From Escherichia phage ESCO5, in the sequence record NC_047776.2: DNA of 64,000 bases; one strand, 5' to 3'. Of the stretch, positions 15,404 through 37,088 are shown in pieces (within the stretch, counting starts at the first letter, position 1; the number at the start of each line of letters is the position of its first letter). A model generated the notes under the pieces. That model saw only the letters and a list, made by a program, of their open reading frames with translations, had not been told where the DNA came from and did no database searches. A program made the position numbers and the translations under genes.

Positions 15404-18400
15404 TCAATGACAGGATGCCCAGGAATTACCCACGTCATATCCGGCAGTAAGCTGAACGTTAAGATTGTAAAATTCTCCAGCCTTAGTAACAGCTAAAGCA
15501 GCAAGTTCACCTGCCCGACTATAAGCTGTAAACCATCCACCTTTGGGAGATTCATGAATGTTAGCCCAAATTTGCCCTGTCTCTTTTTCCTTATTATGCT
15601 TCCATTCTTCAACTTTAGCAAGGCATTCTTTATCAATTTTCTTTTGTTCTTCAGGATCGTCTACTTTCTTCCAACCTAATGATTCAGGTGAAAACCATTT
15701 GAATTCTACAAGGTTACGAGAAACTTCAAGCTGGGCTTCATCGTGGTATGCAATCATTTGTTGCACGAAGTCTTTATTCTTCCAGTCATCTTTAAAGAAG
15801 TCAACACTTAGTCCTTCTTCTTCGATCATATCGTCATAAATAACCATTGCACGTTTAGCACAGATAACCCCACCACTTTGGAACAGAGAGTTAAGAATCG
15901 CGTGAGCAGAACGAGTAGGAACCTTACGACCGTCAATACCCAAAACATACTGTTTACCAGTCTTAACCCAGAAATCGTTTAAACGTTCTTTAAGACGCGC
16001 CAGTGGGAATGCAGCTTCCCAGAAAGCATCGAACACCAGTTGCCCTGTAAACTTATCGCTACCAATTGTTTTAGCAACCTTGTCGGCTTGTGCACCATAG
16101 GTAATACCATACTTAACAGATTTAGCAGGACTACGTTCAAATTTACGTCCAATAGTTTCAGTGATACGTTTTGCCATCATGGTATGAACATCGTTAGGCT
16201 TCTCTAACAAGAGAGCGTTACAGTATTCATGAGGCTCCGGTTCGTAGCGCCAACAGTTTCCTGTGATGGTAATGCAGTCTTTCTGACGCATGACCCACGT
16301 ACCAAGTTCTGTTTGTGGACACCAAACATCCTCTACACCCCACTCTTCAATAGTCAAACTTTGAACAGGAATGTGAGAGCGGTTAGCCAATGTTACCACT
16401 TTTACTTTCTGCTCTTTTGTATTGAAAGCTACAGAGATATTGCCTCCATGCACCAGGTACGAGGCAGTTAAAGCTGCTTCAAAAAGTTCACCTGGGTTCT
16501 GCGCCCAACGCCAAACAGGTTTTTGTTTATGTTCATGCCAGTAACCATCTGCAATCAAGAAACCTTCCAAGAAAGCTACACGCTCGGCATGAGACATATT
16601 AACTACACGCTCTACCCACGGAACATCCCATTTACCTTGTTGAACAGAAGTTAAACTATTTACCTGATCTTGTTCCATGTTAAATGGAGCATTACAAATA
16701 ATATTATCTCCTGTGCAAAGCTCGGCAGTTGTTCTGACTTTAGGCACATAAGTATTCCCTTTACTACGGGTATTAACATACCAACGGTGATCTGCTGTTG
16801 CACGGTAAGTGTGTGATTTCCCTTTAATCTCAAACGTCTTACTATTTTTATAGAAGACCTTACCTTTTACTTTAGTCCATTCTTTCAGACCTGTTTCAGC
16901 ATTGTACCCTAAAATCTCATCCCCTTCCTTCAGGTCGTGATATCCTACCCAACCTTTACGAGTCAAAGCTTGAGCATCCATCGGCACACAGTAATGCGAC
17001 TCAATCTTTGCTTCCAAAGAGTCGAAGTCATAACCGATCTGGAAATATTTAGGAACTTCTACACCAAACAAGTTACGCATCTCCCATCCAAACAAAGATG
17101 TGACACGAGGGATATTGGCTACAGACCTATGCTTCATACGAGAGGTTGCAGCATCACATGTAGCGGCTGGGGTAGGAATACGCCCATCTGCCCTTACTGC
17201 GGCTAAGAAACCTTTATCGTATTCTTGATCTTCTTCATCTTCTTCCCAATCAGCACCGCCACCTAAAATAGAGTTCCTACGATGCTTATACGTTAAGTAT
17301 TCTACAATCTGAGTAGCATAAGGAAATTTCTCACCCAAAGCTTGCAGGTTAGGACAGATTTCTTTTTCCTGACCTTTGGTAAAACATGGGTTAGTCAATA
17401 CTTTAAGACCGCGACCTTTACCTTTTGCTATACGCTCTTGAATCTTCCTTTCCAAGGTTTCCGGTGCGCACTCCAGATGATCACAACGGTCCTGACAAAA
17501 ATTAGAAGATAAAGTTTGCTCAACGTAAGCTCGAATACCTTTCTGAAGTTCTTCCTCACTCTTTTTAATCTTGGTGCCAGATTTAAGAGTCAAATCTTTA
17601 TCTTTATATTCCGATGGTACCCAACCTAATCCTACAAGCCAGTTTTTAATATGGGTTGTATCGTTCAATGTCGCAGGGATGTTAGGATCACACAGAGGCT
17701 CATCTGCTGCAACTGGCAGTTTCCACTCTTTCCCCAACATAACTAACCACCAATCGCCATCCCTCTCTTCCAAATGACCATCATGTTTTTTAGCAAAATT
17801 GATCATATGGTTAGTTGGTTCGAGGTTCTTTTTAATTTGCAATTTAGGCGGAATAAAAGCTTTAAGATAACCTTTTGTTGCTGGTTTAGGTGGCAAAATA
17901 GGCTCAACGAGTAAACGAAGACGCTCCATTTCTGCATCCAAAAAAGCAAGGTTCTCTTCTGCTTGCTTCATATTAAAAGCAAACCCACGGTGTTCCTGGC
18001 GCGTGATAATGTCTGCTACACGTTGTTCAAGTTCAAATGGACCTTCCCATTTATCATAATCACCCCATTCTTCCATAAGGTAGTTATATACGCTCGTATT
18101 GGCTTTGTTGTCATAGATACAGTAATAAAGCATATCCGCAGCAAAAGTCTTAAATCGATCTTCTTCTGGAATCTCTTTACGGAAATCTATTTTTACATCA
18201 CCACCTGCTTTTCGAGAAAGTGCTGCCAAGCTATGTCCTGATTTGCCCTCAATCTTTCGATCTGGGTTTAACACTTTACTCAAAATCAAGGAGTCAATAA
18301 GTTTTACCTTATTTTTGCCCCACGTATTATATTTAACACTGTAATCTAATCCATAAAACAGTTTTGTAGCCAACCAGTCGTAGTTGATACCGTTGTGAGC

Positions 18401-18736
18401 CACAGCCATTTCAACCAGATATTCAGGCTTGTCTTTAAAATAACCTTCATGATTAATAAAGTCTGGGAAATCTTTTAGTTGAAAATGCGTGTAATCTTGC
18501 GCCACATACTCTTTAAGAACATATGTATATTTACCATCTGACTCTTCATAAGGACGCCCATCAAAGATGTATTTAGGGCCATCGTGGAAAGCTACTATTT
18601 CTCCTGTTTCATGGTTCTCTAAGACAATACAGTGCATTTGAAATGTGTCTTTGAGACGATAAGGACTAGCTAAATAATCAATAGTGTCATTATTCAACAA
18701 TCCGTTTGCTTCAATATCCCATGTAAACTTACTCAC
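15404..18736 (-). CDS. DNA polymerase, family A, with 3'-5' exonuclease domain and an intein-like insertion
   Basis: 1110 aa; GTG start after AGGAGG. Exo I motif DIEANG; motif A DFDSLEAKIESHY; motif B AKSVKYGITYGAQ; motif C YHDEAQLEV; about 245 extra residues between motifs A and B. Confidence 0.85.
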   Translation of the reverse strand: MSKFTWDIEANGLLNNDTIDYLASPYRLKDTFQMHCIVLENHETGEIVAFHDGPKYIFDGRPYEESDGKYTYVLKEYVAQDYTHFQLKDFPDFINHEGYFKDKPEYLVEMAVAHNGINYDWLATKLFYGLDYSVKYNTWGKNKVKLIDSLILSKVLNPDRKIEGKSGHSLAALSRKAGGDVKIDFRKEIPEEDRFKTFAADMLYYCIYDNKANTSVYNYLMEEWGDYDKWEGPFELEQRVADIITRQEHRGFAFNMKQAEENLAFLDAEMERLRLLVEPILPPKPATKGYLKAFIPPKLQIKKNLEPTNHMINFAKKHDGHLEERDGDWWLVMLGKEWKLPVAADEPLCDPNIPATLNDTTHIKNWLVGLGWVPSEYKDKDLTLKSGTKIKKSEEELQKGIRAYVEQTLSSNFCQDRCDHLECAPETLERKIQERIAKGKGRGLKVLTNPCFTKGQEKEICPNLQALGEKFPYATQIVEYLTYKHRRNSILGGGADWEEDEEDQEYDKGFLAAVRADGRIPTPAATCDAATSRMKHRSVANIPRVTSLFGWEMRNLFGVEVPKYFQIGYDFDSLEAKIESHYCVPMDAQALTRKGWVGYHDLKEGDEILGYNAETGLKEWTKVKGKVFYKNSKTFEIKGKSHTYRATADHRWYVNTRSKGNTYVPKVRTTAELCTGDNIICNAPFNMEQDQVNSLTSVQQGKWDVPWVERVVNMSHAERVAFLEGFLIADGYWHEHKQKPVWRWAQNPGELFEAALTASYLVHGGNISVAFNTKEQKVKVVTLANRSHIPVQSLTIEEWGVEDVWCPQTELGTWVMRQKDCITITGNCWRYEPEPHEYCNALLLEKPNDVHTMMAKRITETIGRKFERSPAKSVKYGITYGAQADKVAKTIGSDKFTGQLVFDAFWEAAFPLARLKERLNDFWVKTGKQYVLGIDGRKVPTRSAHAILNSLFQSGGVICAKRAMVIYDDMIEEEGLSVDFFKDDWKNKDFVQQMIAYHDEAQLEVSRNLVEFKWFSPESLGWKKVDDPEEQKKIDKECLAKVEEWKHNKEKETGQIWANIHESPKGGWFTAYSRAGELAALAVTKAGEFYNLNVQLTAGYDVGNSWASCH
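16256..16990 (-). mobile_element. putative intein (Hint domain with LAGLIDADG-like remnant) inside the DNA polymerase
   Basis: Insertion starts with Cys right after motif A (SHY|CVPMD) and ends ...ITGN|CWRY (Asn then +1 Cys); contains a TxxH block (RATADH) and a LAGLIDADG-like motif (FLEGFLIADGYW). Flanks rejoin as a normal family A motif A-to-B spacing. Confidence 0.45.
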
Positions 18737-19530
18737 TATTCCTCCTTTCTAATGTTCTCCAGAACCCACTGAAGTTCTTTTAAACTTAAACTTCTTACTC
18801 CCGCAGTTTTACTAGCTTCAGCTTTAAGTAACGGGTAAGCCTCAATGATACGCGTTTTAAGATCAGAAGTCAAGGCTTTTAAAAAATAGGTAGATGCTTC
18901 AGATAAAGAATCTTCTTCTGATAACACTTTACCTGCACTTGCTCCCGCTCTCCTAACGGCTATATCGTAGTCTTTACTGTTACCTAATACGAATAGTCGA
19001 TTCTCTCCTAAAACAACGGGAGAACGCTTCTCGTTGCGTTTAATCCATATCTGGAATACACAAGGAACATCCCAAGGTTCTCCATGAAGAATAAAAGATC
19101 CTTTTGGACATTCTTCTTCGTAAAGAAGATGCATGTGGGGATTTAGTTTGTGTGCAAAAAAGATTTTTTGAAATGTGCGAGGCAAGATAAAACAAATACC
19201 ACCTTCGTTATCCAACATTTCAGCACAATGGTTAAAGAACTTAATGGCAAGACTAGCATTTTTTCCAAACGGAGGATTACCGACAAAAGCAGTTACACTA
19301 CCAACAGACTCAACAGATTGAGCTAAAAAATCTGCCTCAATACAATCTTCAAACTTAGGGTCAATATCAAAAGAAGTTATGTTTTTAAAACAAGAAGAGA
19401 AAGCTCCTTCTCCCGCAGATGGTTCTACGTAGTTAGCTTCCTCTCCAAAAATTTCTTTGATCTTATCACATAAGAACCCCGCATAAGCGGGGTTAGTGTA
19501 ATATTGATCAAGTGTGTTCAACTTGCTCAA
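18736..19530 (-). CDS. DNA N6-adenine methyltransferase
   Basis: 264 aa; TTG start after AAGGAGG. AdoMet motif EPSAGEGAF and catalytic NPPF motif. Confidence 0.7.
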   Translation of the reverse strand: MSKLNTLDQYYTNPAYAGFLCDKIKEIFGEEANYVEPSAGEGAFSSCFKNITSFDIDPKFEDCIEADFLAQSVESVGSVTAFVGNPPFGKNASLAIKFFNHCAEMLDNEGGICFILPRTFQKIFFAHKLNPHMHLLYEEECPKGSFILHGEPWDVPCVFQIWIKRNEKRSPVVLGENRLFVLGNSKDYDIAVRRAGASAGKVLSEEDSLSEASTYFLKALTSDLKTRIIEAYPLLKAEASKTAGVRSLSLKELQWVLENIRKEE

Positions 19531-20045: not shown

Positions 20046-20066
20046 ATAAAAGGGCCGAAGCCCTTA
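20046..20066 (-). terminator. terminator-like hairpin after the primase-helicase gene
   Basis: aagggcttcggccctt followed by ttattaaaa on the - strand. Confidence 0.35.
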
Positions 20067-21842
20067 ATAATTGCTATCCGTAGGCAAATTAGCAGGATTG
20101 TTGAAATACTGCTCTTTGTCATGCAGAGTTGCAGTTCTAATGTCATAGTAAAACTGCCCTGCCGGACCAGTTTCCGAGAACTCACGGTTTTTTAGGATAA
20201 AGCAATGAGTCGTATTGCGTTCTACAGGGTCTTCAGCGGCTTTATCTCGTTCCAAAGCCAAGGTAATACCAGCACCTTTAGCCAAGAAACTACTACCCAT
20301 TGCATCGTCCTCTGTTAAGTGTTCATTGCCACCATTAGCCGATTTCTTAACGTGTGAGATGACGATAATAGTTATAGCATACTCTTTCATGATGCGCTTC
20401 AACCATGTTGCTAACTCTTCCTGGGCTTGAACATCCATACCAGAAAGCAAATCAGAATAAGGGTCGATAACAAGAATTGTTACTCCAAAATAGATGATCA
20501 TCTCCAAAACTTTTTCTTTGATAGACTCCACATCTGCTCCACGATCATCACACACATAAAAACGTGGTGATCCATCTTCTCTTTCGTAAAAATCCAGGAT
20601 TTTTTCTTTATTCTCTTCCAAGATTTGAAATTTCTCTTCCGGTGTTTTCCTGTGTAGAGGAATATGCAGGAACGAGGACAACAGGTTACGAGAATATTTC
20701 TTATAAGTTGCTTCCAAGGACAGAATACCTAGGGTATGTTCTGGGTGCGCAACAATAATATGTTTGGTGATCTCGTTCACCATCAAAGTTTTACCGATAC
20801 TGGTCTTTGCCAGGATGACTGTAATCTCTTCCTCTACTAAACCACCACCCAGCATATTTGCAGCAACACGCATAAAAGGAGGCAAGGTAATCATCTTGGA
20901 TTCCAAGCATTCTAATGCAGCTTCATACAAGACATTAGAAGCATAAACACCTGCTGGGGTGTATAGACGAGCACTCCAAAAAGCTTTTACGAAATCTTTT
21001 GCACGACCTTCTTCCAGATACTGATTGGCATCCTTAAGATCCATCTGCATACGATAGACTTTGTTACGAGGCAGCACCTTAACAATATTTTCAAATGCCT
21101 CATTACCTGCTTTGTCGTTATCCATGCAAACAATAATCTTCTTAAATTTTTCAAAGAAAGGATATTGTGCCTGAACTTGTTTATACATACTGGTTTCACC
21201 AGTTGTGCCACTTACTACGGCTGGAAGCTCATATTTACTGTCCAAGTTTTCAGATAGCATTTGATAAGCTGCCAGAGCATCGTGTTCACCACCTGTAATT
21301 ACAACAGTATGAGAACGGTCTGCAAAACGAATTTGTCCAAAAAGATCTACATCTTTACCTACTTGACCAATAGGTTTACTGAAATCTTTAGGATGAATAC
21401 GACGCTTAAAACCAACCAATTCTTTACCGATGGTAGTCGGATATAAACAACTTTCTACTACCATCTGATCTCCTTCCTGACGGTATTCATAACGAACACC
21501 ATAGAAAGATGAAACTTTTTCTTTAATGCCTCGATAACCACGTGGGTTGGTTGATGTTTCTTGAACAATTTTACGATGAATCTGTTTATTAAATTCCGAA
21601 CCCACAATCTCCTCCTCTTCTTCTAAAACTTCACCATTTTCTCGTAACCATTCTACGCTAGGAATAGTGTATTCACACGCAAAGCACTTAGCACCTTTAT
21701 GCTCTCCATTAGAATCTAATCCGTAAACCATCAGGTTATTACGAGAGCGATCCTTGCCATTTTTCATGCAGCGCGGACAACCTGTATGTCCTTCCTTGCT
21801 AAGATCAACATCAAATCCATATTTAGTTATAATGTGCGACAC
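20064..21842 (-). CDS. primase-helicase (T7 gp4-like)
   Basis: 592 aa; N-terminal zinc ribbon (CPRC...CFAC), Toprim-like GGEHDALAA, Walker A ILAKTSIGKT, Walker B-like VLVIDPYSD. Confidence 0.8.
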   Translation of the reverse strand: MSHIITKYGFDVDLSKEGHTGCPRCMKNGKDRSRNNLMVYGLDSNGEHKGAKCFACEYTIPSVEWLRENGEVLEEEEEIVGSEFNKQIHRKIVQETSTNPRGYRGIKEKVSSFYGVRYEYRQEGDQMVVESCLYPTTIGKELVGFKRRIHPKDFSKPIGQVGKDVDLFGQIRFADRSHTVVITGGEHDALAAYQMLSENLDSKYELPAVVSGTTGETSMYKQVQAQYPFFEKFKKIIVCMDNDKAGNEAFENIVKVLPRNKVYRMQMDLKDANQYLEEGRAKDFVKAFWSARLYTPAGVYASNVLYEAALECLESKMITLPPFMRVAANMLGGGLVEEEITVILAKTSIGKTLMVNEITKHIIVAHPEHTLGILSLEATYKKYSRNLLSSFLHIPLHRKTPEEKFQILEENKEKILDFYEREDGSPRFYVCDDRGADVESIKEKVLEMIIYFGVTILVIDPYSDLLSGMDVQAQEELATWLKRIMKEYAITIIVISHVKKSANGGNEHLTEDDAMGSSFLAKGAGITLALERDKAAEDPVERNTTHCFILKNREFSETGPAGQFYYDIRTATLHDKEQYFNNPANLPTDSNY

Positions 21843-21854
21843 TTTGTTCTCCTG

Positions 21855-22133
21855 TTAAAATGGTTCGTTAGTCTCCATCATATATTCTGCTTCTAGTTCT
21901 TCCATGTGCTTTCTAAATTGGAAAGCAATTTCTGCTACAGTTACATTTAAATCTTTTTCAAAAACTTCTGTAGATCCTTCATAAAAACGAATACCGTCAA
22001 TTAAAAGCCCTCCGTGGTAATCCCAATCGCTTTCACGAGAAAGTGGATTAGGTTCTTCATAATAGTAATCCACCTCCACAACCAAGGCTTTCCCGTTACG
22101 AGTGGTGTATTCAAAATCAAAAGTGTTAATCAT
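21855..22133 (-). CDS. hypothetical protein
   Basis: 92-aa ORF; stop overlaps the next start. Confidence 0.5.
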   Translation of the reverse strand: MINTFDFEYTTRNGKALVVEVDYYYEEPNPLSRESDWDYHGGLLIDGIRFYEGSTEVFEKDLNVTVAEIAFQFRKHMEELEAEYMMETNEPF

Positions 22134-23077
22134 TATAGCTCCTCAAATAAAAGTCTACGACGCTCATTCAACACATCAATGTGATAATGAGTCCTGACAT
22201 ACTTAGCTAATGCTAATCCTTTCTCCATGCAAACATCGGGAGCACTTAATAAGTATTCCGTAATATCTTTCCACTCGGAAGGTGTTTCAGCAAAGAATAA
22301 CAAATCTTTAAACTCTTGTGTATGATAATTCTCACGAGGAGAGCAGATTAAAGGTAAACCCTTAGCACCTGCCTCAAGAATTTTAAGATTGCTTTTTGCA
22401 TTATTAAACACGTTATCGATCAATGGTGCAAGACTGATTTGATGACCATCGTAAGATTCCATGTAGTAGGCATATGGTCTTACACCTTCATAAACACAAG
22501 TTGGTGCTACATTTTCCCTGATTAAAGACCATTCACGACTACTTAAAACTTCAGAATCCCTACGAAAACCACATATTGTAAGATCTTTACCAAAATCGGG
22601 CAAGATAGCCAAATCTTGTTTATGTGTTTCACTTCCAGCCCAGACTAATGGAGTTTTGGAGTAGCGATCACGGGTCAACACAAATTGACCTTCATCGTAA
22701 GGAAGTCCATTAGGGATTATGTGCACATTATCATTGTATTGTGAAAGTTCAACTTGCAAGGCAGGTGTCGTAGTTGTAACAAGATCACTGTGCTCTAAAA
22801 ACCATTTTAAATGTTCACGAATACCTGATTCAAAAATACCTTCTAACATGTGTCCTTTTGGAATAACTAAAGAGTCATCCAAATCCATAACCATTTTAAA
22901 GCCCAGGTTTTTAAGGGCTAAAAAGCCCTCTTTACCTTTTGTTGGCACTCCGTTAAAAACGAAAACGTTGTGTTTAGGTTGTGAAGAGAACTGCCTTGAG
23001 TAAGGCAGCACTACCCTATGGAAATCGCAGACACTATAATTGATTCCGTTACGATTGTCAAGAATTATTTGTCCCAT
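22133..23077 (-). CDS. glycosyltransferase (GT-B fold, group 1-like), paralog 1
   Basis: 314 aa; C-terminal KSNLKILEAGAKGLPLICS resembles the GT1 sugar-donor-binding motif; clear paralog of the next gene. Confidence 0.5.
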   Translation of the reverse strand: MGQIILDNRNGINYSVCDFHRVVLPYSRQFSSQPKHNVFVFNGVPTKGKEGFLALKNLGFKMVMDLDDSLVIPKGHMLEGIFESGIREHLKWFLEHSDLVTTTTPALQVELSQYNDNVHIIPNGLPYDEGQFVLTRDRYSKTPLVWAGSETHKQDLAILPDFGKDLTICGFRRDSEVLSSREWSLIRENVAPTCVYEGVRPYAYYMESYDGHQISLAPLIDNVFNNAKSNLKILEAGAKGLPLICSPRENYHTQEFKDLLFFAETPSEWKDITEYLLSAPDVCMEKGLALAKYVRTHYHIDVLNERRRLLFEEL

Positions 23078-23084
23078 ACTTCAC

Positions 23085-24032
23085 CTACAAACTTTCAATA
23101 ACCTGGCGTCGCAATTCGTTTGCATCTGCCAGATTATAATGTGTTCGAACATGTTCCGCTAAGAACAAGCCGCGATCTTCCCGATAGTTCGGATTGCGAA
23201 GAAGCTTAACAATTTCGTAATGCCATTCAGCTTTATTCTCTGCGTAAGCAACAGCGCGAGCATCTACAGGGTTAAAATAAGGTAATACCTTAGAACAAAC
23301 AATCGGAATACCTTTTGCCCCAGCTTCAAGGATTTTGAGATTACTTTTACAATTATTAAAATCATTGTCTACCAAAGGAGCTATAGCAATAGCATGACTT
23401 TCGTAAACACTCATGTAATTATCTAAATCTTTTACAGCAGCTTTATATTTGGCGTTTGGTAAATTTCTACGGATCTTAATCCACTCTTGCCCTGTGATAC
23501 TCTGCGATGCTTCATATCCTGCAATAGTAAGAAGTTCATCATCGAAAGTATTAGAGACTAGTCGTAAATCGGGTTCGTGACTAGCACCGCCAGCCCATAC
23601 AACAGGGGTACCGGATGAACGATCATTTGACAAAGTGAATTGTCCGCTATCAAAAGGAAGTGCATTTCGGATCACAACAACATTCCTATTTAAGTGACGG
23701 ATCTTATATGCCAAATATTCCGTAGTCACAATGACCACATCGGCAAGCTTAACCATAGCTACAATAGCATGAGTGTTTGACTCATATAAACTTGCTAAAT
23801 AATGTTCTGGATTAAGTTGGTAGAAATCATCTAAATCTACAACAATCTTAACACCTTGACGTTTCAGTGACAGAACATATTCTGCCCCTTTAGAATGAAT
23901 ACGGTTAAACACGACAACATCTTTCTTAGGCTGAAAATTATTGTTGTTAAATGGTATAACAATACGATGATAATCACAACCACTGTGAGGTTTTGCATCA
24001 ATTTTCAGTTTAGTCCATTTTTTATTTGACAT
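23085..24032 (-). CDS. glycosyltransferase (GT-B fold, group 1-like), paralog 2
   Basis: Shares VVWAG, APLVDN and KSNLKILEAGAKGIPIVCS with paralog 1. Start placed at the ATG 9 nt after AGGAGG (track ORF extends to 24071). Confidence 0.5.
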   Translation of the reverse strand: MSNKKWTKLKIDAKPHSGCDYHRIVIPFNNNNFQPKKDVVVFNRIHSKGAEYVLSLKRQGVKIVVDLDDFYQLNPEHYLASLYESNTHAIVAMVKLADVVIVTTEYLAYKIRHLNRNVVVIRNALPFDSGQFTLSNDRSSGTPVVWAGGASHEPDLRLVSNTFDDELLTIAGYEASQSITGQEWIKIRRNLPNAKYKAAVKDLDNYMSVYESHAIAIAPLVDNDFNNCKSNLKILEAGAKGIPIVCSKVLPYFNPVDARAVAYAENKAEWHYEIVKLLRNPNYREDRGLFLAEHVRTHYNLADANELRRQVIESL

Positions 24033-24705
24033 GTGCCAGTGCCTCCTCATAAGAAATTCGGATTTTCCCATTTTTAATATCTTCTAAAGACGCTTTATAT
24101 TCTTCCCAGTTAATGCCAATAGCAACTTCTTTCTCTTCTTTTGTCAGATTAGCAAAAGGCATAGGATTGTTTCCAAAAACATCGTCTGGGTGGATATAAG
24201 CCATGATACGAAGTGGACAAGGTATTGCCTGAATGCCCTGATTCAAACCAGCAGCTTTCAAACGGTGTACCCATTCAGCATCTTCAAAACCATAGCCGTG
24301 AGTGTAAGGGCGGAAATAACCCATCTTCTCAACAACGGCACGAGAATACATTGCAAATTGACACATTGCAAGTTCCCAGAGAATAACTTCTCCTTTACTC
24401 CCAACAACTTTATCTTTGAAATACTCCGGCATACCAAAGAAATCCCATCCTCCAGAGACAGCTTGATCTACAAAATATGTTTCCCATCCCTCCATGATTG
24501 GGTAGCAATCGTCGTCAAAAATAAACCAATAATCATAACCTTCTTCATAAAACTGGTGCATAAGTTCATTCCTGGCGTAAGCTACACCTTTACGATCTGG
24601 ATCGTTGAATACTCGAAAATCTGCATGTGGATCTGTTACAAGGTAGTCTTTAAGTGGACGGACACCTACAGTGATAACACCCACTCCGATTTTAATATTT
24701 TCCAT
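24022..24705 (-). CDS. glycosyltransferase-like protein (GT-A-like, DxD-type motif)
   Basis: 227 aa; FIFDDDCYP acidic motif after a beta-strand, typical of GT-A nucleotide-sugar transferases. Confidence 0.45.
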   Translation of the reverse strand: MENIKIGVGVITVGVRPLKDYLVTDPHADFRVFNDPDRKGVAYARNELMHQFYEEGYDYWFIFDDDCYPIMEGWETYFVDQAVSGGWDFFGMPEYFKDKVVGSKGEVILWELAMCQFAMYSRAVVEKMGYFRPYTHGYGFEDAEWVHRLKAAGLNQGIQAIPCPLRIMAYIHPDDVFGNNPMPFANLTKEEKEVAIGINWEEYKASLEDIKNGKIRISYEEALAHVK

Positions 24706-24713
24706 TTTCTCTC

Positions 24714-25277
24714 CTAAATAGTTTTACTGTGATCGTGACAGTGTAATAAATGATGTATAGACCGTTGAGGATTTGTTTGACCTAATCTGTAAATGTGAAA
24801 CAGATACATTCCCCGCATCAATCCTAACCTCTTTCCTTTTTCATGTAAAGTGCGAGAGAAAATTAAGTCGAATTGGATAGATTTTTCTTCGAAAGGAATT
24901 TCATTCCACAATGATTTTCTAAAAAGCAAAAAGAAACCTGCCAGAGGTGTTCCGAAAGGAACTTCTTCAACACTCACTTTATGATATTCTCTTGCAATCT
25001 TAGCATATTCTATATGGTTTAGAATATCTGGATCATCGTTAATTTGGTTAGAGAAAAGCTGATAACCACTACCTAACCTGTTACAAGTTGCACCTATTAC
25101 ATCAAAAGGCGGGTTTGACATAACAAGCTCTTCAAGCATAGATGGTTGATCAGGCAGGAGGAACATTGTATCGGTATCTCTTAAGCACACCCAACTATCA
25201 TCTGGAAGAACGGCAATAGCTTCATTGATAGCCTTGCCGATATTTCCTGTCAGATAGGGAGTAATATAATAAATCAT
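24714..25277 (-). CDS. glycosyltransferase-like protein (GT-A-like)
   Basis: 187 aa; N-terminal Rossmann-like IYYITPY... and LRDTDTMF motif. Confidence 0.4.
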   Translation of the reverse strand: MIYYITPYLTGNIGKAINEAIAVLPDDSWVCLRDTDTMFLLPDQPSMLEELVMSNPPFDVIGATCNRLGSGYQLFSNQINDDPDILNHIEYAKIAREYHKVSVEEVPFGTPLAGFFLLFRKSLWNEIPFEEKSIQFDLIFSRTLHEKGKRLGLMRGMYLFHIYRLGQTNPQRSIHHLLHCHDHSKTI

Positions 25278-26596: not shown

Positions 26597-27199
26597 TTAT
26601 GGACATTCATACCATTCTTTTTTACCACCGAAGGCCATTACCACATCGCAAATATCCAGACCAGCTTTACCTACACCATATGCTTTCAGCTTCCATTCTC
26701 CATCTTCACGAACCAGGGAAGCCACGTGGCAGATTGTGTTGCCAGCTACTTCAGGAGCCAGGAAGTCAAAATCCAGAATTTCCACATTACGCTCGGAGTC
26801 GAAGATTTTAAGCATACCTTCAGAAGCATGACCAAAACGTTTCAGACCTGTATCATCATCAATAGTCAGAACAAAGGCAATCTCTTGTGCATCAGGAGAG
26901 ATTTTAGCCAGAGTAATATCAATCTGCTCCATGCTGCCAGTTCCATCACGAACATCGTCACCAGCAAAGGTAGAACGTTCAGGATCAAACTTATTAGCAT
27001 AGCAAACCAGATGACGTGCAGACAGCATTTCAGGATTGCCAGCGGCATTGTGACGACAAACCAGTGCACTTACATCCAGATCCAGTTTAGAATCAGATTT
27101 CCAAGAGAACTCCAGGCGTAGTTCTTTCAGAGCCGGAGCAACTTTCTTCAGGGAAATTTTTTCGCTAGAGCCTTTTTTCAGGGAAATTTTATCAGTCAT
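26597..27199 (-). CDS. terD: TerD-family protein
   Basis: 200 aa; duplicated N-terminal ISLKK motif, LDLDVSALV, FAGDDVRDGTG, IAFVLTIDD and GEWKLKAYG closely parallel E. coli TerD. Confidence 0.8.
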   Translation of the reverse strand: MTDKISLKKGSSEKISLKKVAPALKELRLEFSWKSDSKLDLDVSALVCRHNAAGNPEMLSARHLVCYANKFDPERSTFAGDDVRDGTGSMEQIDITLAKISPDAQEIAFVLTIDDDTGLKRFGHASEGMLKIFDSERNVEILDFDFLAPEVAGNTICHVASLVREDGEWKLKAYGVGKAGLDICDVVMAFGGKKEWYECP

Positions 27200-27214
27200 C
27201 TTTTGTCTCCTCTA

Positions 27215-27484
27215 TTATTTAAGTGTAATACCAGTTACAGTCAATTCTACTTCCAAAAGCTTAGATGTGTTTTGGATTGATACTAATTGTGCATGATGGT
27301 TTAGTTCTACAGCAGAATAATCATTTTCCCCATCATCTACTTTTAAATAAACAATGATTTCACTAAGGTCTAAACCATTTTCGTCAAATGCATTTTCATA
27401 GACGAAAGTATCTCCTACATCCAAATCTTTAATGGTAAGGCATCGTTTATTTACTTTTTGCTCATCAATTTCGAAGTTTAACAC
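27215..27484 (-). CDS. small protein, paralog of 28506-28784, sits directly upstream of terD
   Basis: 89 aa; shares DLDVGDTF(V/M)Y, DENGLD and (T/N)ITLK with its paralog. Confidence 0.5.
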   Translation of the reverse strand: MLNFEIDEQKVNKRCLTIKDLDVGDTFVYENAFDENGLDLSEIIVYLKVDDGENDYSAVELNHHAQLVSIQNTSKLLEVELTVTGITLK

Positions 27485-27713
27485 TTCTTCCTCCTAATAT
27501 TATCTCCGGTTTATATATACGAAGAATTATAGCATTTTCATTTTCTTTGTCAACCCATTCTTCATAATCAGGCCATACATGAATCTCTACTCTACTTACA
27601 ATATCTTCCATTCGCACAGTCCCAATGAAATACTCTTTGAGACTGCACATAATGAAAGCTTCTCTCTCGCGCCAATAATTTTCTATGACTTGAGAGGCAA
27701 GCTCGTCGATCAT
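27465..27713 (-). CDS. hypothetical protein
   Basis: 82-aa ORF with overlaps at both ends. Confidence 0.4.
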   Translation of the reverse strand: MIDELASQVIENYWREREAFIMCSLKEYFIGTVRMEDIVSRVEIHVWPDYEEWVDKENENAIILRIYKPEIILGGRSVKLRN

Positions 27714-28504
27714 TTTTTAGCACCTACTTTAACAACCCACTCTCCGAACTCTTCAGATAAGAGTTTGTCATAAAGCTCTGAATCTGTCAAGTCTAAATCT
27801 TTAATGCCAATAAAACCAACATTATCATAAGCATTTGCCAGTTCTTTCAGGAAGCCAAACTTCTCATTACCAACGCCAACCATGAACCAATAAATAGGTT
27901 TATTCTTATTCTCTTCAATAAGACGACGAACAGCACTAGGATCACCATTCTCACCATCCGTCTGGAAGAATACAACACCAGGGGTAACGTCAGCACCTGG
28001 TTCAGACACAGCTACAACCTTTTCACGCTCTACAGATACTGTTTCAGTTTTACCAAGCAGACGATTAAAGAAGCCTTTCTTTGGAGCCTCTTCTTGTACC
28101 ACTTGTTTAGTGGTAATATATTTGGTAACAGTGCCAAAATACTCATCGTAGATATCTGCCATTACAGGGGCGTAATTTGTTCCACCTCCGATACGAACAT
28201 TACGCATACATTTACCAACATAGTCATCGTAAACGTCTGCTGTTGCTGGAGTAAGCTCTTGGGAACTCGTATTGAAGGCCCACATATCAATTTGTTGATT
28301 ATCGTCGAACAGCATACCAAAAGGAAGCAGTTTACCTACAAAATCACTCACTACCCCACTAGAATATAGACCATGCATACTACCAGAAATATCTAGAGCA
28401 CATGCTACACGAAGAACAATCTTACCTTCATTCAGGTTCTTATTCTTTTTCAGAGAGAAAGCAAGGTTTTCTTGACGTTTTTTCAGGCTGATTTTATCGG
28501 ACAT
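27710..28504 (-). CDS. TerD-N-terminal motif plus von Willebrand factor A domain protein (TerY/TerF-like)
   Basis: 264 aa; N-terminus MSDKISLKK as in TerD; vWA MIDAS motif LDISGSM, then GGGTNY and FFQTDGENGD. Confidence 0.7.
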   Translation of the reverse strand: MSDKISLKKRQENLAFSLKKNKNLNEGKIVLRVACALDISGSMHGLYSSGVVSDFVGKLLPFGMLFDDNQQIDMWAFNTSSQELTPATADVYDDYVGKCMRNVRIGGGTNYAPVMADIYDEYFGTVTKYITTKQVVQEEAPKKGFFNRLLGKTETVSVEREKVVAVSEPGADVTPGVVFFQTDGENGDPSAVRRLIEENKNKPIYWFMVGVGNEKFGFLKELANAYDNVGFIGIKDLDLTDSELYDKLLSEEFGEWVVKVGAKK

Positions 28505-28505
28505 A

Positions 28506-28784
28506 TTATTTCTCCTTCTTAAGTGTAATGTTGGTAACTTCTAAATCTACTTCCACCATATTTGTATCTGGCGGGATGCAATGAGTATAGCCTCGTTGTG
28601 CTAGTGATCCATTAATACAAATCGCACTGTTTGTGGAATTTTTAATGAACACCAAGTTACGGTAGGTATCCAACCCTGCGTCTTCATAGGCATCATAATA
28701 CATGAATGTGTCCCCTACGTCAAGATCTTCGAAAGCAATAGGTAAATCCTGACCTTTTTCTTCTTGAATATTGAATCTAAACAC
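28506..28784 (-). CDS. small protein, paralog of 27215-27484, sits directly upstream of the TerD-vWA gene
   Basis: Start placed at the GTG 5 nt after GAGGAGG so that the product aligns with the paralog (VFRFNIQEE vs MLNFEIDEQ); track ORF extends to 28850. Confidence 0.45.
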   Translation of the reverse strand: MFRFNIQEEKGQDLPIAFEDLDVGDTFMYYDAYEDAGLDTYRNLVFIKNSTNSAICINGSLAQRGYTHCIPPDTNMVEVDLEVTNITLKKEK

Positions 28785-29340
28785 GCATACCTCCTCTACC
28801 AATTTTGAAGCCCAAATCGTAAGCTTCCTTAGTAATCTTTTGTAACTCACTTATAGGAAGTGTTACAAGAGGATCATCTTCTTCAATTTCCATCTTGTCA
28901 TCTTCTGTTTCAATGAGAGTATTATGCACTTTGTGATAAGGGTTGTCAACACGTTTAAACTTATTCTTTTCTGTGCTGAAAAAACAATCTGGATCTTCTT
29001 CACCATCACCCCAACCTTGATTAGGATCTCCGTCAGATTGTTCTGTAGGGATTTCACCTGTAAAGTACTCTTCCAGCACCATAGCAATACCGTCCCTTGG
29101 ATTTGAGGAATGCATTAAATCACAAACCTTACCCCAATCCATAGCCCATTCGAACCGTTCACGAACGCCATTTTCATCCTCTTTTCCAGAGAAAACACAA
29201 CCATAACTATCATAGTTGCCATACATCTCTTCAATAACAACACCGTCTTTCAAAAGAAAGAGGTAGCAAGGTGATCCGTCGAAAGAAGTAGAAAGGGCAG
29301 CTTTGCCCGATTCTTTGCACAAAAAACTAAAACAACCCAT
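28777..29340 (-). CDS. hypothetical acidic protein
   Basis: 187-aa ORF, Asp/Glu-rich centre. Confidence 0.5.
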   Translation of the reverse strand: MGCFSFLCKESGKAALSTSFDGSPCYLFLLKDGVVIEEMYGNYDSYGCVFSGKEDENGVRERFEWAMDWGKVCDLMHSSNPRDGIAMVLEEYFTGEIPTEQSDGDPNQGWGDGEEDPDCFFSTEKNKFKRVDNPYHKVHNTLIETEDDKMEIEEDDPLVTLPISELQKITKEAYDLGFKIGRGGMRV

Positions 29341-29543
29341 TACAAACCCTCCTTCAGATTATCAAGAGCTACAGTGGTTTCACAAAATTCTCCATAAGCT
29401 TTATGATGTTCCAGAAAAGCTTCGGGTCCACCCCAGTCATTATCTTGTGTATTCCAACCATCAATAAAAGCATCTTCAATGATTGTGATCAGTTCTTGTC
29501 GGGTTAACTGGATAATATTAGGATCGTTATCGTAGTTAAACAT
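29340..29543 (-). CDS. hypothetical protein
   Basis: 67-aa ORF; stop overlaps the next start. Confidence 0.45.
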   Translation of the reverse strand: MFNYDNDPNIIQLTRQELITIIEDAFIDGWNTQDNDWGGPEAFLEHHKAYGEFCETTVALDNLKEGL

Positions 29544-29709
29544 CTTCTTCCTCCTCTAAAATATGAAACCCGTAATTACAATAGTCCTGAAAGGTTTCGT
29601 GCGCAAGATCTTCTATATCCTCTTGAGACATATCATCTTCAATTTCGATATCCACAACCTCATTGCATCCACACCAAGCAGTTTCAATATTCACTCGTAA
29701 TATTTTCAT
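29536..29709 (-). CDS. hypothetical small Cys-containing protein (below the ORF-track cutoff)
   Basis: 57 codons (MKILRVNIETAWCGCNEVVD...); TAATG overlap with the upstream stop. Confidence 0.3.
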   Translation of the reverse strand: MKILRVNIETAWCGCNEVVDIEIEDDMSQEDIEDLAHETFQDYCNYGFHILEEEEDV

Positions 29710-29906
29710 TACTCCTCCTCCTCATTGAAGTCAATATCTGCAAGGAGTTCGAATTTACGGAAGTTACGACAACCTTCATAAATATAACAATCACGACAAA
29801 CTGCTAGAACACTTGGGGGATATATGCCTCCCATCGGTGCGAATCGTTTTTCGTCATCATAACGGACACCAATGTCTTCATCAATTATATAGATACGGAT
29901 TCTCAT
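29709..29906 (-). CDS. hypothetical protein
   Basis: 65-aa ORF, Cys-rich. Confidence 0.45.
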   Translation of the reverse strand: MRIRIYIIDEDIGVRYDDEKRFAPMGGIYPPSVLAVCRDCYIYEGCRNFRKFELLADIDFNEEEE

Positions 29907-31015
29907 TTACCAAGCCCTCGTTTCACAGCAGCTACCATCCCGTCTTCCAGAGATTGAACTTCATTAATATAATCAACACGAGCAGCACGGGCTTCCGTAT
30001 TGATGCGGTTAGTTTCTTCCAACATCTTAACCAAGTTTTCCTGATCGTGACGCAGAGTTTCAATATCCAACACTTGACGGTTAGCCAGTGCTGCTGCTTC
30101 GATCTGATTCTGTGTGGCAAGATCGCTACCTAGTTTAATTGCCAGGTTAAATTCATCAAGAACGTTATTCTGCGTCTCTGCTGCTTTCATTTGACGTAAG
30201 CTCTCGATATACATTGAGAAGTTAGCAGAGTAAGCAGGAATAACATTATTTACTATGTTACGCGCAGATCGCATTAAGCTTGCAGAAACTTTTTGCATAC
30301 CTTGTACACGCGGTCCCATTTGGACACACAGTAGGCGCAACGCCTTTAAATCTGCAATACGAATCTCCAGGAGATCCAAAGTATCTCGGATCACTTGTCG
30401 CTGTTCTACGGCATCTTCTGGAAGAGCAGCCAAAGCTTGTTCTTCTTTTTCATAGGTTGCTGTTAGAAGCTGCATATCTCGGTTCAAACTTGCAGCATAT
30501 TGTCCAATAGCTTGGTGTAGCTTTTCAAGATATACCAAGGAATCTTCTTCTTTGCGAATATCCATTTGAAGGTTCTTTACCAACTCTTCAATACGGTTAT
30601 TAACATTATCAAACTCCCCAAACAGGTCTTCTTTCATACCCATAACTTTTTTAATGAGTTTAGTAATACCCTTGCTTTGTTTAATAGAGTTTGGATCAAG
30701 TTGTTTTGCCTGTTTAATCAAGGCTGTGAGTCGTTCACTCATCTGATCGCCTTGATTACTACGTTGATGTTTTAACACCTCGGCATTCAAGGAACGCAAG
30801 GTTGTTCCTGCCTCTGCCCCAATCTCTTCGATCTCTTGTCGGGTCATAGAAGGTAAAACTGGAACTTCTTGCGGTGCTGCTGGTGCATAAACAGGACTGG
30901 CATCTAACACACTTGGAGCAAATACAGATTTACTTGCATCTGTTGTTGCAGCGAATACACTCATTTCAGACTTCTTCTGACCACCAGTAGCTGCTTTTAA
31001 AAATGGACTTGTCAT
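29903..31015 (-). CDS. TelA-like (toxic anion resistance family) helical protein, tentative
   Basis: 370 aa, predicted long helical/coiled-coil protein with Pro/Ala-rich N-terminus; size, architecture and Ter-gene context suggest TelA/KlaA; PspA-like is an alternative. Confidence 0.4.
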   Translation of the reverse strand: MTSPFLKAATGGQKKSEMSVFAATTDASKSVFAPSVLDASPVYAPAAPQEVPVLPSMTRQEIEEIGAEAGTTLRSLNAEVLKHQRSNQGDQMSERLTALIKQAKQLDPNSIKQSKGITKLIKKVMGMKEDLFGEFDNVNNRIEELVKNLQMDIRKEEDSLVYLEKLHQAIGQYAASLNRDMQLLTATYEKEEQALAALPEDAVEQRQVIRDTLDLLEIRIADLKALRLLCVQMGPRVQGMQKVSASLMRSARNIVNNVIPAYSANFSMYIESLRQMKAAETQNNVLDEFNLAIKLGSDLATQNQIEAAALANRQVLDIETLRHDQENLVKMLEETNRINTEARAARVDYINEVQSLEDGMVAAVKRGLGK

Positions 31016-34991: not shown

Positions 34992-35004
34992 TTTTAGCTC
35001 CTTA

Positions 35005-35832
35005 TTACAGAATGTGTTGTTTTGTGTAACGATCCAAGAATTCAAAGTTTTCAGCATACTTTGAAATTCGGTTGTAACCTTCTCCCAAACATCCGAAGAA
35101 AAGTTGCTCTACATAGTAGTGTGGCAATTGGCTAAGAATGATTTTGAAGTCTTCGTGATTTTGGCCCATAAGATACTTAATAGGACGAACAAGACACTGT
35201 GCATCACGTTCTTCATTAATCATTTTAACAAACGCTTCTGGTGTATTGATATAGTTAAAATTCAGTTTAGCTTCAGTATCTGCTTGATTACCTTCATATT
35301 TTGCAAAATACAAGAAGTAAACATCATTTTTAACTTGATTTTCATCAAGAATCTCAATCAGTTTGTCTTCATGAGTTCCGGTGATATTTACATCATCAAT
35401 GAACACAAGCTTCTTATCACCCCAGAATTCTTTGTTGCAGTAGAATGTATCCCCATCAATAAGTTTCTTACGACTAGCTTTATCCAAGAAACCATAATCG
35501 TTGATATAGCTAACTTTACGATGAATAATATCCAGTTCTGCTGAACGACCTTGATCATATTGTGCTTGCAACATATTAAAGTAATTAATAAAATGATCTG
35601 TCATCATTGTTGCAGCATTGTGCACATGGTTATAAGGAGAAGGGATGATAACAAATTGTTCCCCAATATGTTTCATTGCCACTTGAGCAAAAAACTGAAG
35701 TACCAATTCTTTACCCATACGACGCGCAGCTTGGTTACTACCAAATTTCAATTTTGAATAGTCTTTGATATCAAAAGTAGCAGTTTCCAGGTCATCAAAT
35801 TTATTTGCAAAAATTTGAGTTTGATTACGCAT
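35005..35832 (-). CDS. phosphoribosyltransferase-like protein (type I PRTase fold)
   Basis: 275 aa; KKLVFIDDVNITGTHEDKL matches the PRPP-binding motif (hydrophobic-hydrophobic-D-D-hydrophobic-x-T-G-T). Confidence 0.5.
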   Translation of the reverse strand: MRNQTQIFANKFDDLETATFDIKDYSKLKFGSNQAARRMGKELVLQFFAQVAMKHIGEQFVIIPSPYNHVHNAATMMTDHFINYFNMLQAQYDQGRSAELDIIHRKVSYINDYGFLDKASRKKLIDGDTFYCNKEFWGDKKLVFIDDVNITGTHEDKLIEILDENQVKNDVYFLYFAKYEGNQADTEAKLNFNYINTPEAFVKMINEERDAQCLVRPIKYLMGQNHEDFKIILSQLPHYYVEQLFFGCLGEGYNRISKYAENFEFLDRYTKQHIL

Positions 35833-36481
35833 TTACAATTTCTCCTCTTTTAAGTTTCTCTAGTAAGTCGTTAGGGTTCTTAATATGACAGAAGTTAATC
35901 CCTATGTCAACACATTTACCATCAAATTCTTCGCTGTCCCCAACATGTAAAATCTCTTCAGCCTTCAAAGGAATGCTTGAATATGTGGCGGTCCTAACAA
36001 AGAATCTAGGATCTGGTTTACATAACAGATGTTCGTCTGAAAAATGCATAAATTCAAAACAATTCCAACTGTCGAACATACAAGCACGACGCAAAATATC
36101 CCCAGATATAAAATTAGTATTGCTTTTAATACTAAGATCATATTTACCAGACAAGTATAGCAAACAAACTGGCAAATCTAAAGCGATATGTGGAGGAAAT
36201 TTAAGAAACCATTGCTCACAATCAAAACGCATTTGTGCAGATTCTACAGGGGTTAAACCTATCTTTCTTCCCAACATATTCCATGCATATGCTACACCTT
36301 CTGCACACCCATTTAGTGCAGCATTATCCATAATTTCTTTGGCATCTTTATATGCTTCTTTTGCCGCACGTTCAGACATTCTACCATATGTAGCAATAGT
36401 GTGCGTACGTGCATCTGCATAGTTTTGATTGGCAGAAATAAGAGTATTCCATACATCAAAAGAAATATGTTTTATTGTCAT
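35825..36481 (-). CDS. HAD-superfamily hydrolase-like protein
   Basis: Start placed at MTIKHISFDVWNTL; motif I-like FDVWNTL (second Asp replaced, as in haloacid dehalogenases) and motif IV-like LHVGDSEEFD. Confidence 0.4.
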   Translation of the reverse strand: MTIKHISFDVWNTLISANQNYADARTHTIATYGRMSERAAKEAYKDAKEIMDNAALNGCAEGVAYAWNMLGRKIGLTPVESAQMRFDCEQWFLKFPPHIALDLPVCLLYLSGKYDLSIKSNTNFISGDILRRACMFDSWNCFEFMHFSDEHLLCKPDPRFFVRTATYSSIPLKAEEILHVGDSEEFDGKCVDIGINFCHIKNPNDLLEKLKRGEIVNA

Positions 36482-36482
36482 A

Positions 36483-37088
36483 CTAGGCCCACCACGCATC
36501 AAGATTTAAGTTACTGTCTACCACAACTTGTTCTATGTGGTAGCCTTTTATCTGTATCCCACTGTTCAAGAGCATATCATATGCTTCATTGAAACGCAAC
36601 TTATCTTCTGCGGAATATAAGCGAGCATTGTAAAATCGGTAATCAAGTTCTTCAGCATTAGAAGAAATACGGAAGAAGTTTGTTTCTACTTCAGGATCAC
36701 TTGCTGAAGTTTTAATGTGAACTTCTCCGTAATTTTCTTTGCTTAGATCCATGAAAAGAACACAGGCAACATGTTTAAACATTCGTTCCAGTTTGTAACG
36801 AACAACATTGAAACCTGCGTTCTCAAGTTTTTCTACACATTGCAACATTAACGTAGTGTCGAGATCGCTTTGATACTTTGTTAACATACGATCACGTTGA
36901 GACTTTGTATCCCGATGTAAATCAATTGTTGTGCATTTGGCACCAATGATCTTAGCTGCTTTCATCAACTCTTCAGAACTAACGTTAGATAAAGTAAGAT
37001 GAAAATGGGCTTTCCACACTTTTTTAGCAGGGACACCAAAAGATTTATCCCCACTATTCGGCATGTTGACTACTACACTATGTTGCAT
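36483..37088 (-). CDS. hypothetical protein
   Basis: 201-aa ORF. Confidence 0.5.
   Translation of the reverse strand: MQHSVVVNMPNSGDKSFGVPAKKVWKAHFHLTLSNVSSEELMKAAKIIGAKCTTIDLHRDTKSQRDRMLTKYQSDLDTTLMLQCVEKLENAGFNVVRYKLERMFKHVACVLFMDLSKENYGEVHIKTSASDPEVETNFFRISSNAEELDYRFYNARLYSAEDKLRFNEAYDMLLNSGIQIKGYHIEQVVVDSNLNLDAWWA

Follow-up and report, generated by a model that had tools for sequence, protein, structure and literature searches.

Several virus-encoded glycosylation systems have been described, and they differ in what they decorate. The Che8-type loci of cluster F1 mycobacteriophages, whose hosts are Actinobacteria, encode a cluster of two to four soluble glycosyltransferases (GTs) of GT-A types, in some cases together with a sugar methyltransferase, outside the structural operon proper; virion glycosylation has been demonstrated for this type of locus, and PMC11256854 (citing Freeman 2023) gives the capsids of Che8 and Rita as glycosylated. 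Giant viruses (chloroviruses and mimiviruses), which belong to the eukaryotic world, combine a nucleotide-(deoxy)sugar pathway of their own, based on UDP- and GDP-sugars, with several GT-A enzymes for host-independent glycosylation of their particles. Here we analyze four adjacent GT genes in Escherichia phage ESCO5, a Phapecoctavirus, within a 64,000-nucleotide stretch of sequence record NC_047776.2 that we refer to as the window. Like the Che8-type loci, ESCO5 has a cluster of soluble GTs, but its cassette includes a GT-B member and is accompanied in the genus by Rml genes, both of which the Che8-type loci lack, and its part in virion glycosylation is a prediction. As in the giant viruses, a deoxy-sugar pathway accompanies several GT-A enzymes; however, the relatives of ESCO5 encode the bacterial-type dTDP-L-rhamnose route, and beyond the GT-A fold there is no sequence relation. 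We tentatively propose that this cassette, which appears to be mobile among phages, builds a glycan on virion proteins.

The four genes form a closely packed cluster of 3.1 kb, transcribed in the order GT4, GT3, GT2, GT1, and each is preceded by its own Shine-Dalgarno sequence. In this order they are:

24714..25277, minus strand: GT4, 187 amino acids (aa), predicted minimal GT-A glycosyltransferase and first gene of the cassette; DxD motif LRDTDTMF.
24022..24705, minus strand: GT3, 227 aa, predicted GT-A (GT2-like) enzyme; invariant FIFDDD and conserved GYGFED motifs.
23085..24032, minus strand: GT2, 315 aa from its probable start, predicted GT-B enzyme and paralog of GT1; the longest open reading frame (ORF) extends to 24071 and would give 328 aa.
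22133..23077, minus strand: GT1, 314 aa, predicted GT-B enzyme with a GT4-family-like two-Rossmann-domain architecture; C-terminal KSNLKILEAGAKG motif.

An earlier reading, made from the letters of the window without database searches (the sequence-only reading), had placed four consecutive GT-like genes at 22133-25277, and four back-to-back minus-strand ORFs do occupy exactly this interval. It described two GT-B paralogs of 314 and 328 aa that share a GT1-type C-terminal motif, and two GT-A-like proteins with the DxD-type motifs FIFDDDCYP and LRDTDTMF; the analysis below agrees with it on folds, paralogy and motifs. The length of 314 aa is right for GT1, whereas 328 aa is probably too long for GT2. 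Its most likely start is the ATG at 24032 rather than that at 24071, because GAGGAGG lies upstream of the former and the RefSeq orthologs also have 315 aa. In RefSeq all four genes are already labelled “glycosyltransferase,” and all four proteins match glycosyltransferase-annotated PHROG families (E 1e-78 to 1e-149). That four GT genes exist here is not new; what we add is a proposed role, and the proposal that the genes form a mobile cassette tied to dTDP-rhamnose synthesis. Membrane segments are absent from all four proteins, and no NCBIfam model covers them.

GT1 and GT2 are 41% identical (E 4e-76), and both match PHROG 7162 (E 8.5e-145 and 6.8e-149, respectively). In Pfam, GT2 matches Glyco_trans_1_4 and Glyco_trans_1_2, while GT1 alone reaches 24.7 bits against Glyco_trans_1_2, where the cut-off is 25. 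Across the GT-B family, Glyco_trans_1_2 was found in 22 of 29 members (best E 2.5e-9), Glyco_trans_1_4 in 18 (best E 2.7e-11) and the N-terminal half, Glyco_transf_4, in 12 (best E 1.1e-5). With both Pfam halves recognized in this way, the sequence profiles place GT1 and GT2 in the GT-B fold. Matches to solved structures were weak: in the Protein Data Bank (PDB) the family profile found TreT, PglA and BshA, each through its C-terminal domain, and the GT1 sequence gave marginal GT-B matches only. The C-terminal motif is conserved family-wide. In the stretch KSNLKILEAG, K228 and K232 are invariant and S229, N230, L231, L234 and E235 nearly so, and in alignments the KSNLKILEAGAKG stretch falls on the corresponding helix of T4 b-gt and of TreT. 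Read by eye, this region is without the first Glu of the canonical EX7E motif.

For GT3 and GT4, Pfam gave nothing above threshold. Because neither sequences nor profiles found a match among PDB sequences, their folds were taken from structure prediction. AlphaFold models built on the family alignments were confident for both GT3 (pLDDT 84, pTM 0.85) and GT4 (pLDDT 92.7, pTM 0.89), and each consists of one Rossmann-like alpha/beta/alpha domain that superimposes on solved GT-A enzymes, as is characteristic of this fold. D64-D65-D66 of GT3 is invariant in all 14 sequences, and in GT4 at least 90% of 24 sequences share D34 and D36; in both proteins the DxD would be the metal/nucleotide-sugar-binding motif. 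Structural neighbors of the two models include TarP (which is prophage-encoded), TarS, RmlT, AvpGT, GlfT2 and K4CP as well as the giant-virus proteins A64R of PBCV-1 (2p6w) and R699/R655 of mimivirus. A fold search of BFVD with GT3 returned generic viral GT-A proteins and did not discriminate between the hypotheses weighed below. Although the GT4-like domain has no Pfam model, it is not rare: at E≤1e-3 it was found in 983 cluster representatives. Some proteins consist of this domain alone; in others it is joined to a TOD1_MUCI70-type GT, to GT2 (the family) or to Methyltransf_24, and never to nucleic-acid-related domains. Fusions of two GTs and a methyltransferase occur in this family as they do in the giant viruses.

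The distribution of the cassette points to horizontal exchange among phages. Close to home, the region is 97-99.7% identical to that of more than 60 Phapecoctavirus genomes, including ukendt (∼99.7% identical to the window), ESCO25 (99.6% over the cluster), ESCO13, phAPEC8 and ZCKP1, and about 130 myoviruses, all strictly lytic, share the conserved cassette. Far beyond this group, an HK97-like prophage of Serratia sp. M24T3 carries GT4, GT3 and GT-B genes in the same order, matching the ESCO5 cassette with hhalign E values of 4e-64 and 8e-50 and with 39% identity for GT-B. Two distant large myoviruses (loci L014 and L015) also keep this order, with one GT-B copy. A scan of IMG/VR yielded 28 loci, in nearly all of which GT3 adjoins a GT-B gene, with GT4 as a frequent third member; among them the GT-B gene is duplicated in Stephanstirmvirinae-like loci only. 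Over the whole set of about 35 loci, too, the GT3 and GT-B genes are almost always neighbors. Homologs in a large protein database were almost all on phage or metagenome contigs. When about 100,000 species-representative genomes were scanned, two loci emerged, one on a binned phage contig and the other in the Serratia prophage; the scan used restrictive peptide patterns of limited sensitivity, so it supports rather than proves absence from bacterial chromosomes. Judged by this distribution, GT4-GT3-GT-B is a mobile, essentially phage-restricted cassette.

In unrelated phages of small or medium size, the cassette lies in or beside the terminase, portal, capsid or tail modules. Locus L005 has the order lysis, cassette, HNH, TerS, TerL and capsid; in L030 the cassette is directly upstream of TerS, TerL and head genes, and in L039 it is upstream of HNH and, further on, TerL and portal. 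This sequence of GTs, HNH and terminase is also that of the right end of Che8. The L035 cassette is enclosed between a tail protein and TerL, portal, protease and major capsid protein, that of L032 precedes the genes for major tail protein and tape measure, and L010 has its GT-B and GT3 homologs between TerL and portal. Cellulophaga phage phi18:1 encodes a GT with a GT4-like C-terminal half, next to a Methyltransf_24 gene, between its portal/head-morphogenesis and protease/capsid genes. Other positions differ. In three lambdoid contigs (L006, L007 and L038) the GT3–GT-B pair occupies a moron position, with Q/HicAB on one side and the lysis genes on the other, and in L033, L037 and L040 the position is uninformative or non-structural. 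In the large myoviruses the order is always hydrolase, small ORFs, cassette, an ORF of about 90 aa and primase-helicase.

Two of these loci hold further genes of interest. A 152-aa ORF (L010, 10927-11385) that stands between the GT-B and GT3 homologs has an N-terminal Cys motif and a peptidase-like look and is unrelated to GT4. In phi18:1 (gp40-gp41; L046, 5868-7540), gp40 is annotated as “DNA methyltransferase” and matches Pfam Methyltransf_24. It adjoins the TOD1_MUCI70 plus GT4-like glycosyltransferase in the head module and is fused with it in other phages, and it is more likely to be a sugar O-methyltransferase than a DNA methyltransferase.

We looked for the source of a donor sugar in the complete genome of ukendt. 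This genome contains a complete RmlB/A/C/D operon, about 75 kb from the cassette and outside the window. All four products exceed their NCBIfam equivalog cut-offs (RmlA, 465 against 361; RmlB, 432 against 365; RmlC, 226 against 156; RmlD, 237 against 224). RmlC and the cassette occur in the same set of ∼130 phage records, both are present in the distant Klebsiella phage 05F01, and in L028 a dTDP-glucose-4,6-dehydratase-like gene is inserted inside the cassette. Taken together, the co-occurrence suggests a functional unit of “Rml pathway + GT cassette,” in which the GTs would use rhamnose. One Phapecoctavirus, ESCO37, is without rmlA and rmlB and is nevertheless viable (PMC10269720). It keeps rmlC, rmlD and the GT cassette. 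The host enzymes RffH/RffG or RfbA/RfbB could supply the intermediate.

The Rml genes of ukendt lie among genes of nucleotide metabolism (NrdAB, Grx and ThyX). As a side observation, this ThyX (L003, 27837-28835) has 332 aa, which is unusually long for the family, gives a partial Thy1 match only (E 5e-8) and is adjoined by an NT5C-type deoxynucleotidase (L003, 28845-29453); we take it to be an ordinary thymidylate synthase.

The sequence-only reading had rightly left the substrate undecided and had named three candidate roles for these genes: stepwise glycosylation of modified DNA bases, glycosylation of virion proteins and modification of host surface polysaccharide. Virion-protein glycosylation fits the comparative context best. 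GT4, GT3 and the duplicated GT-B enzymes, GT2 and GT1, would act as soluble, cytoplasmic glycan-assembly enzymes together with the phage dTDP-L-rhamnose pathway. Sugars would be added singly, through up to four different linkages, giving a short rhamnose-containing oligosaccharide, which would be built on capsid and/or tail proteins during assembly. Particles would gain a glycan coat resembling the one on mycobacteriophage Che8, or the capsid glycans of chloroviruses and mimiviruses. We infer donor, acceptor and order of steps from the genes and their context, and we regard this stepwise construction of a virion-protein glycan with rhamnose as a serious possibility, somewhat short of probable.

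Five lines of evidence lead us to favor virion glycosylation: the cassette recurs in the head and tail modules of unrelated phages; it is restricted to phages; the GT-A domain of Ramsey gp106 is a homolog of GT3; the fusion partners are purely glycan-building; and the deoxy-sugar is supplied by the phage itself. This self-supply parallels particle glycosylation in chloroviruses and mimiviruses. The GT3 family matches the Ramsey gp106 GT-A domain with a probability of 98.4% (E 5e-15), and gp106 belongs to a right-arm GT locus beside HNH/cos/terminase, the locus that gp108-110 occupy in Che8. In addition, the fusion partners of the GT4-like domain resemble the GT2 plus Methyltransf_24/TylF content of Che8 gp108.

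Several observations weigh against this interpretation. In ESCO5 and the other large myoviruses the cassette is found among genes for replication and nucleotide metabolism, not among structural genes, and its positions in temperate phages, downstream of Q and between lysis genes and cos, are classic moron sites for lysogenic-conversion genes. The link to Che8 runs through Ramsey, a different cluster-F phage whose own glycosylation would have to be presumed; compared directly, Che8 gp108, gp109 and gp110 match GT3 and GT4 with E of only 0.1-0.4 and are not clearly of the same families. Among the capsid, decoration, sheath and tube proteins from ukendt and the small-phage carriers, none shows a Ser/Thr-rich tail or another recognizable acceptor feature, although such a screen for Ser/Thr tracts is uninformative either way. 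Finally, we found no paper that reports glycosylated virions in any Stephanstirmvirinae phage.

The alternatives draw in part on the neighborhood of the cassette in ESCO5, which the sequence-only reading had correctly located between a primase-helicase and a Ter-like module, close to an N6-adenine methyltransferase-like gene:

15404-18736, minus strand: family-A DNA polymerase, beyond the methyltransferase-like ORF.
18736-19530: methyltransferase-like ORF of the N6-adenine type, with a GNPPFG motif.
20064-21842: primase-helicase, downstream of the cassette and past the 92-aa ORF.
21855..22133, minus strand: 92-aa ORF between GT1 and the primase-helicase; PHROG 4240.
26597-31015 and ∼35000-36500, minus strand: Ter-like module (TerD, vWA-TerF-like and TelA, with TerC further on).

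Upstream of GT4, three small ORFs and a SleB-type cell-wall hydrolase precede the TerD/vWA-TerF/TelA module. We considered the 92-aa ORF as a member of the cassette or as its acceptor and rejected it as a core component: homologs hold the same position in L009, L014 and L015 and are not found in small-phage cassettes. The ORF is conserved only in large myoviruses and probably lies outside the mobile cassette.

Two side observations concern this neighborhood. At 27553-27526 on the minus strand, inside a small ORF (27465-27713), there is a perfect sigma-70 consensus promoter (TTGACA, 16 nucleotides with an extended TG, TATAAT). It precedes the co-oriented run of TerD, hydrolase, GT cassette and primase-helicase and might drive early transcription of the block from TerD to the primase-helicase; a scan for promoters and terminators gave 35 promoter-like sites where 24.6±5.3 were expected, and it did not resolve the timing of expression. 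The DNA polymerase has 1110 aa in ESCO5 and 865 aa in ESCO13. The difference is an insertion of 244 aa (aa 584-827, at ∼16256-16987) between flanks that are 99.3-99.8% identical; it begins with Cys and ends in GN before a Cys, and is in this respect intein-like. The polymerase of ukendt (1189 aa) carries a different, longer insertion.

Soluble GTs could also work at the cytoplasmic face of the host membrane, adding rhamnose-containing branches to lipid-linked intermediates of the lipopolysaccharide (LPS) core, enterobacterial common antigen (ECA), or O-antigen and capsule. The phages would thereby mask their own receptors, which would give superinfection exclusion and progeny protection in lytic phages or lysogenic conversion in temperate ones. 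The structural neighbors TarP, TarS, RmlT, AvpGT, GlfT2 and K4CP do act on cell-wall or lipid-linked glycans, PglA, an enzyme with an undecaprenyl pyrophosphate-linked acceptor, is among the nearest solved relatives of the GT-B profile, and the pair is in a moron position in L006, L007 and L038. TarP also provides a precedent for such a role. The receptors of these phages, moreover, are ECA and LPS core (PMC8594841). Yet about 130 carriers are strictly lytic, and newly made LPS or ECA could presumably not replace the surface receptors within one cycle. At the loci examined, no flippase, polymerase, acyltransferase or membrane GT stands beside the cassette; the pattern scan of the ∼100,000 species genomes found the family essentially absent from bacterial polysaccharide loci; and in several carriers the cassette is embedded in a head or tail module and not at an att or moron site. 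S. aureus TarP and the GTs of serotype-converting phages are, in contrast to the multi-enzyme cassette conserved in lytic phages, single enzymes or membrane Gtr sets in lysogens. Modification of the host envelope seems rather unlikely to us but stays a credible rival. We also consider it unlikely that the acceptor is something else altogether, be it a host protein (as part of a host-factor takeover), a non-structural phage protein, RNA, or a small molecule such as a nucleoside-like metabolite of the Ter module. No hypothesis has an identified acceptor, and every large-myovirus locus has the cassette directly downstream of TerC/TelA/vWA-TerF/TerD and the SleB-like hydrolase. This Ter module includes a ComF-like phosphoribosyltransferase (PRTase_3, E 6e-42) and a HAD hydrolase, a Ter-associated gene set that has been proposed to make a nucleoside-like metabolite. 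However, the cassettes of small phages travel without any Ter genes, no fusion partner or neighbor indicates a specific host target, and a set of several GTs with its own deoxy-sugar supply would be more typical of an oligosaccharide on a stable macromolecule.

The remaining candidate, which the sequence-only reading had listed first, is that the GTs transfer rhamnose or other sugars to a modified base of phage DNA, as in T4 with its hydroxymethylcytosine, and thereby evade restriction or CRISPR. Such a role has been speculated upon before (Olsen 2020, PMC7552041). It agrees with the setting near primase-helicase, DNA polymerase and the N6-adenine methyltransferase-like gene, and with the place of the Rml genes among NrdAB, Grx and ThyX; a-gt and b-gt of the T-even phages (GT-B) and the T2/T6 enzyme and TAGT (GT-A-like) are likewise phage-encoded, among early and replication genes. 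GT3 also shows weak, local similarity to two of these enzymes. Over about 40 residues around the DxD it matches PHROG 842, the T2/T6 beta-glucosyl-HMC-alpha-glucosyltransferase, with E 5e-6, and it has a weak match to Pfam TAGT (PF20691; E 1.3e-3), which covers residues 33-68 only and reaches 19.2 bits where the cut-off is 27.5; TAGT proteins rank 26th and 33rd among the viral structural matches of GT3. At the family level there is no similarity. None of the four proteins matches the a-gt or b-gt PHROGs at E<=0.01, and the comparison with the T4 alpha- and beta-glucosyltransferases that the sequence-only reading had proposed disclosed no relation beyond the generic GT-B fold (hhalign probability of 1.8% for a-gt and 4.8% for b-gt). 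That reading saw no hydroxymethylase in the window, where indeed there is none, and the Rml and ThyX genes are likewise absent from it. Extending the search to the rest of the genome, as it had also proposed, changed nothing: neither the ukendt annotation nor a Pfam screen of 20 of its larger unannotated proteins contained a ThyA-type hydroxymethylase, a TET/JBP enzyme or a hydroxymethyluracil kinase, and ThyX is the only thymidylate-synthase-type gene.

The properties of the DNA itself, as reported for close relatives, also speak against such a base modification. No known DNA sugar modification needs as many as four transferases, and in small phages the cassette is found in structural modules. 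In a study of 42 phages, HincII cut all but three; two of these, ESCO47 and ESCO58, are Tevenvirinae, of which three genomes were sequenced in all (PMC10269720). Because the uncut phages number only three, with two named as Tevenvirinae and three Tevenvirinae sequenced, all five Phapecoctavirus isolates, ESCO25 and ESCO13 among them, must have been digested, whereas the T-even phages were not. Phi92-like phages of the BASEL collection, which have RmlC as well as an orthologous cassette, are “exceptionally susceptible” to restriction-modification (PMC8594841), and BREX causes a 7-log reduction of phiPATM, a further phage with the cassette, which falls outside the BrxU-sensitive (modified-cytosine) class (PMC8565348). 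ESCO5 thus differs from the T-even and TAGT systems in all three respects: family-level similarity, a hydroxymethylase or TET partner, and the restriction sensitivity of close relatives. With no enzyme found for an acceptor base, T4-style glycosylation of DNA is unlikely and is the least supported of the three proposed roles; even when a sparse or sequence-specific version is included, we think it very improbable that the cassette acts on DNA. The “rhamnose modification” of Stephanstirmvirinae DNA, which is repeated in the literature, is unsupported by the available restriction data.

We return, then, to virion glycosylation and to what it would mean. It is a tentative but real possibility that this mobile, phage-restricted cassette, together with phage-made dTDP-rhamnose, provides a glycan coat for the virions of phages that infect Gram-negative hosts: coliphages, among them the Phapecoctavirus and Justusliebigvirus strains of therapy cocktails, and others. 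Phapecoctavirus and phi92-like phages have a broad host range, and these coliphages have repeatedly been proposed or used for therapy and biocontrol; such a glycan could alter antibody recognition, clearance, stability and host-range behavior, as reported for Che8. If the proposal is right, this would be, as far as we found, the first virion glycosylation system described outside the actinobacteriophages, and one that is tractable in phages of E. coli K-12. Virion glycosylation would then be a widespread, horizontally exchanged phage trait and not a peculiarity of actinobacteriophages.

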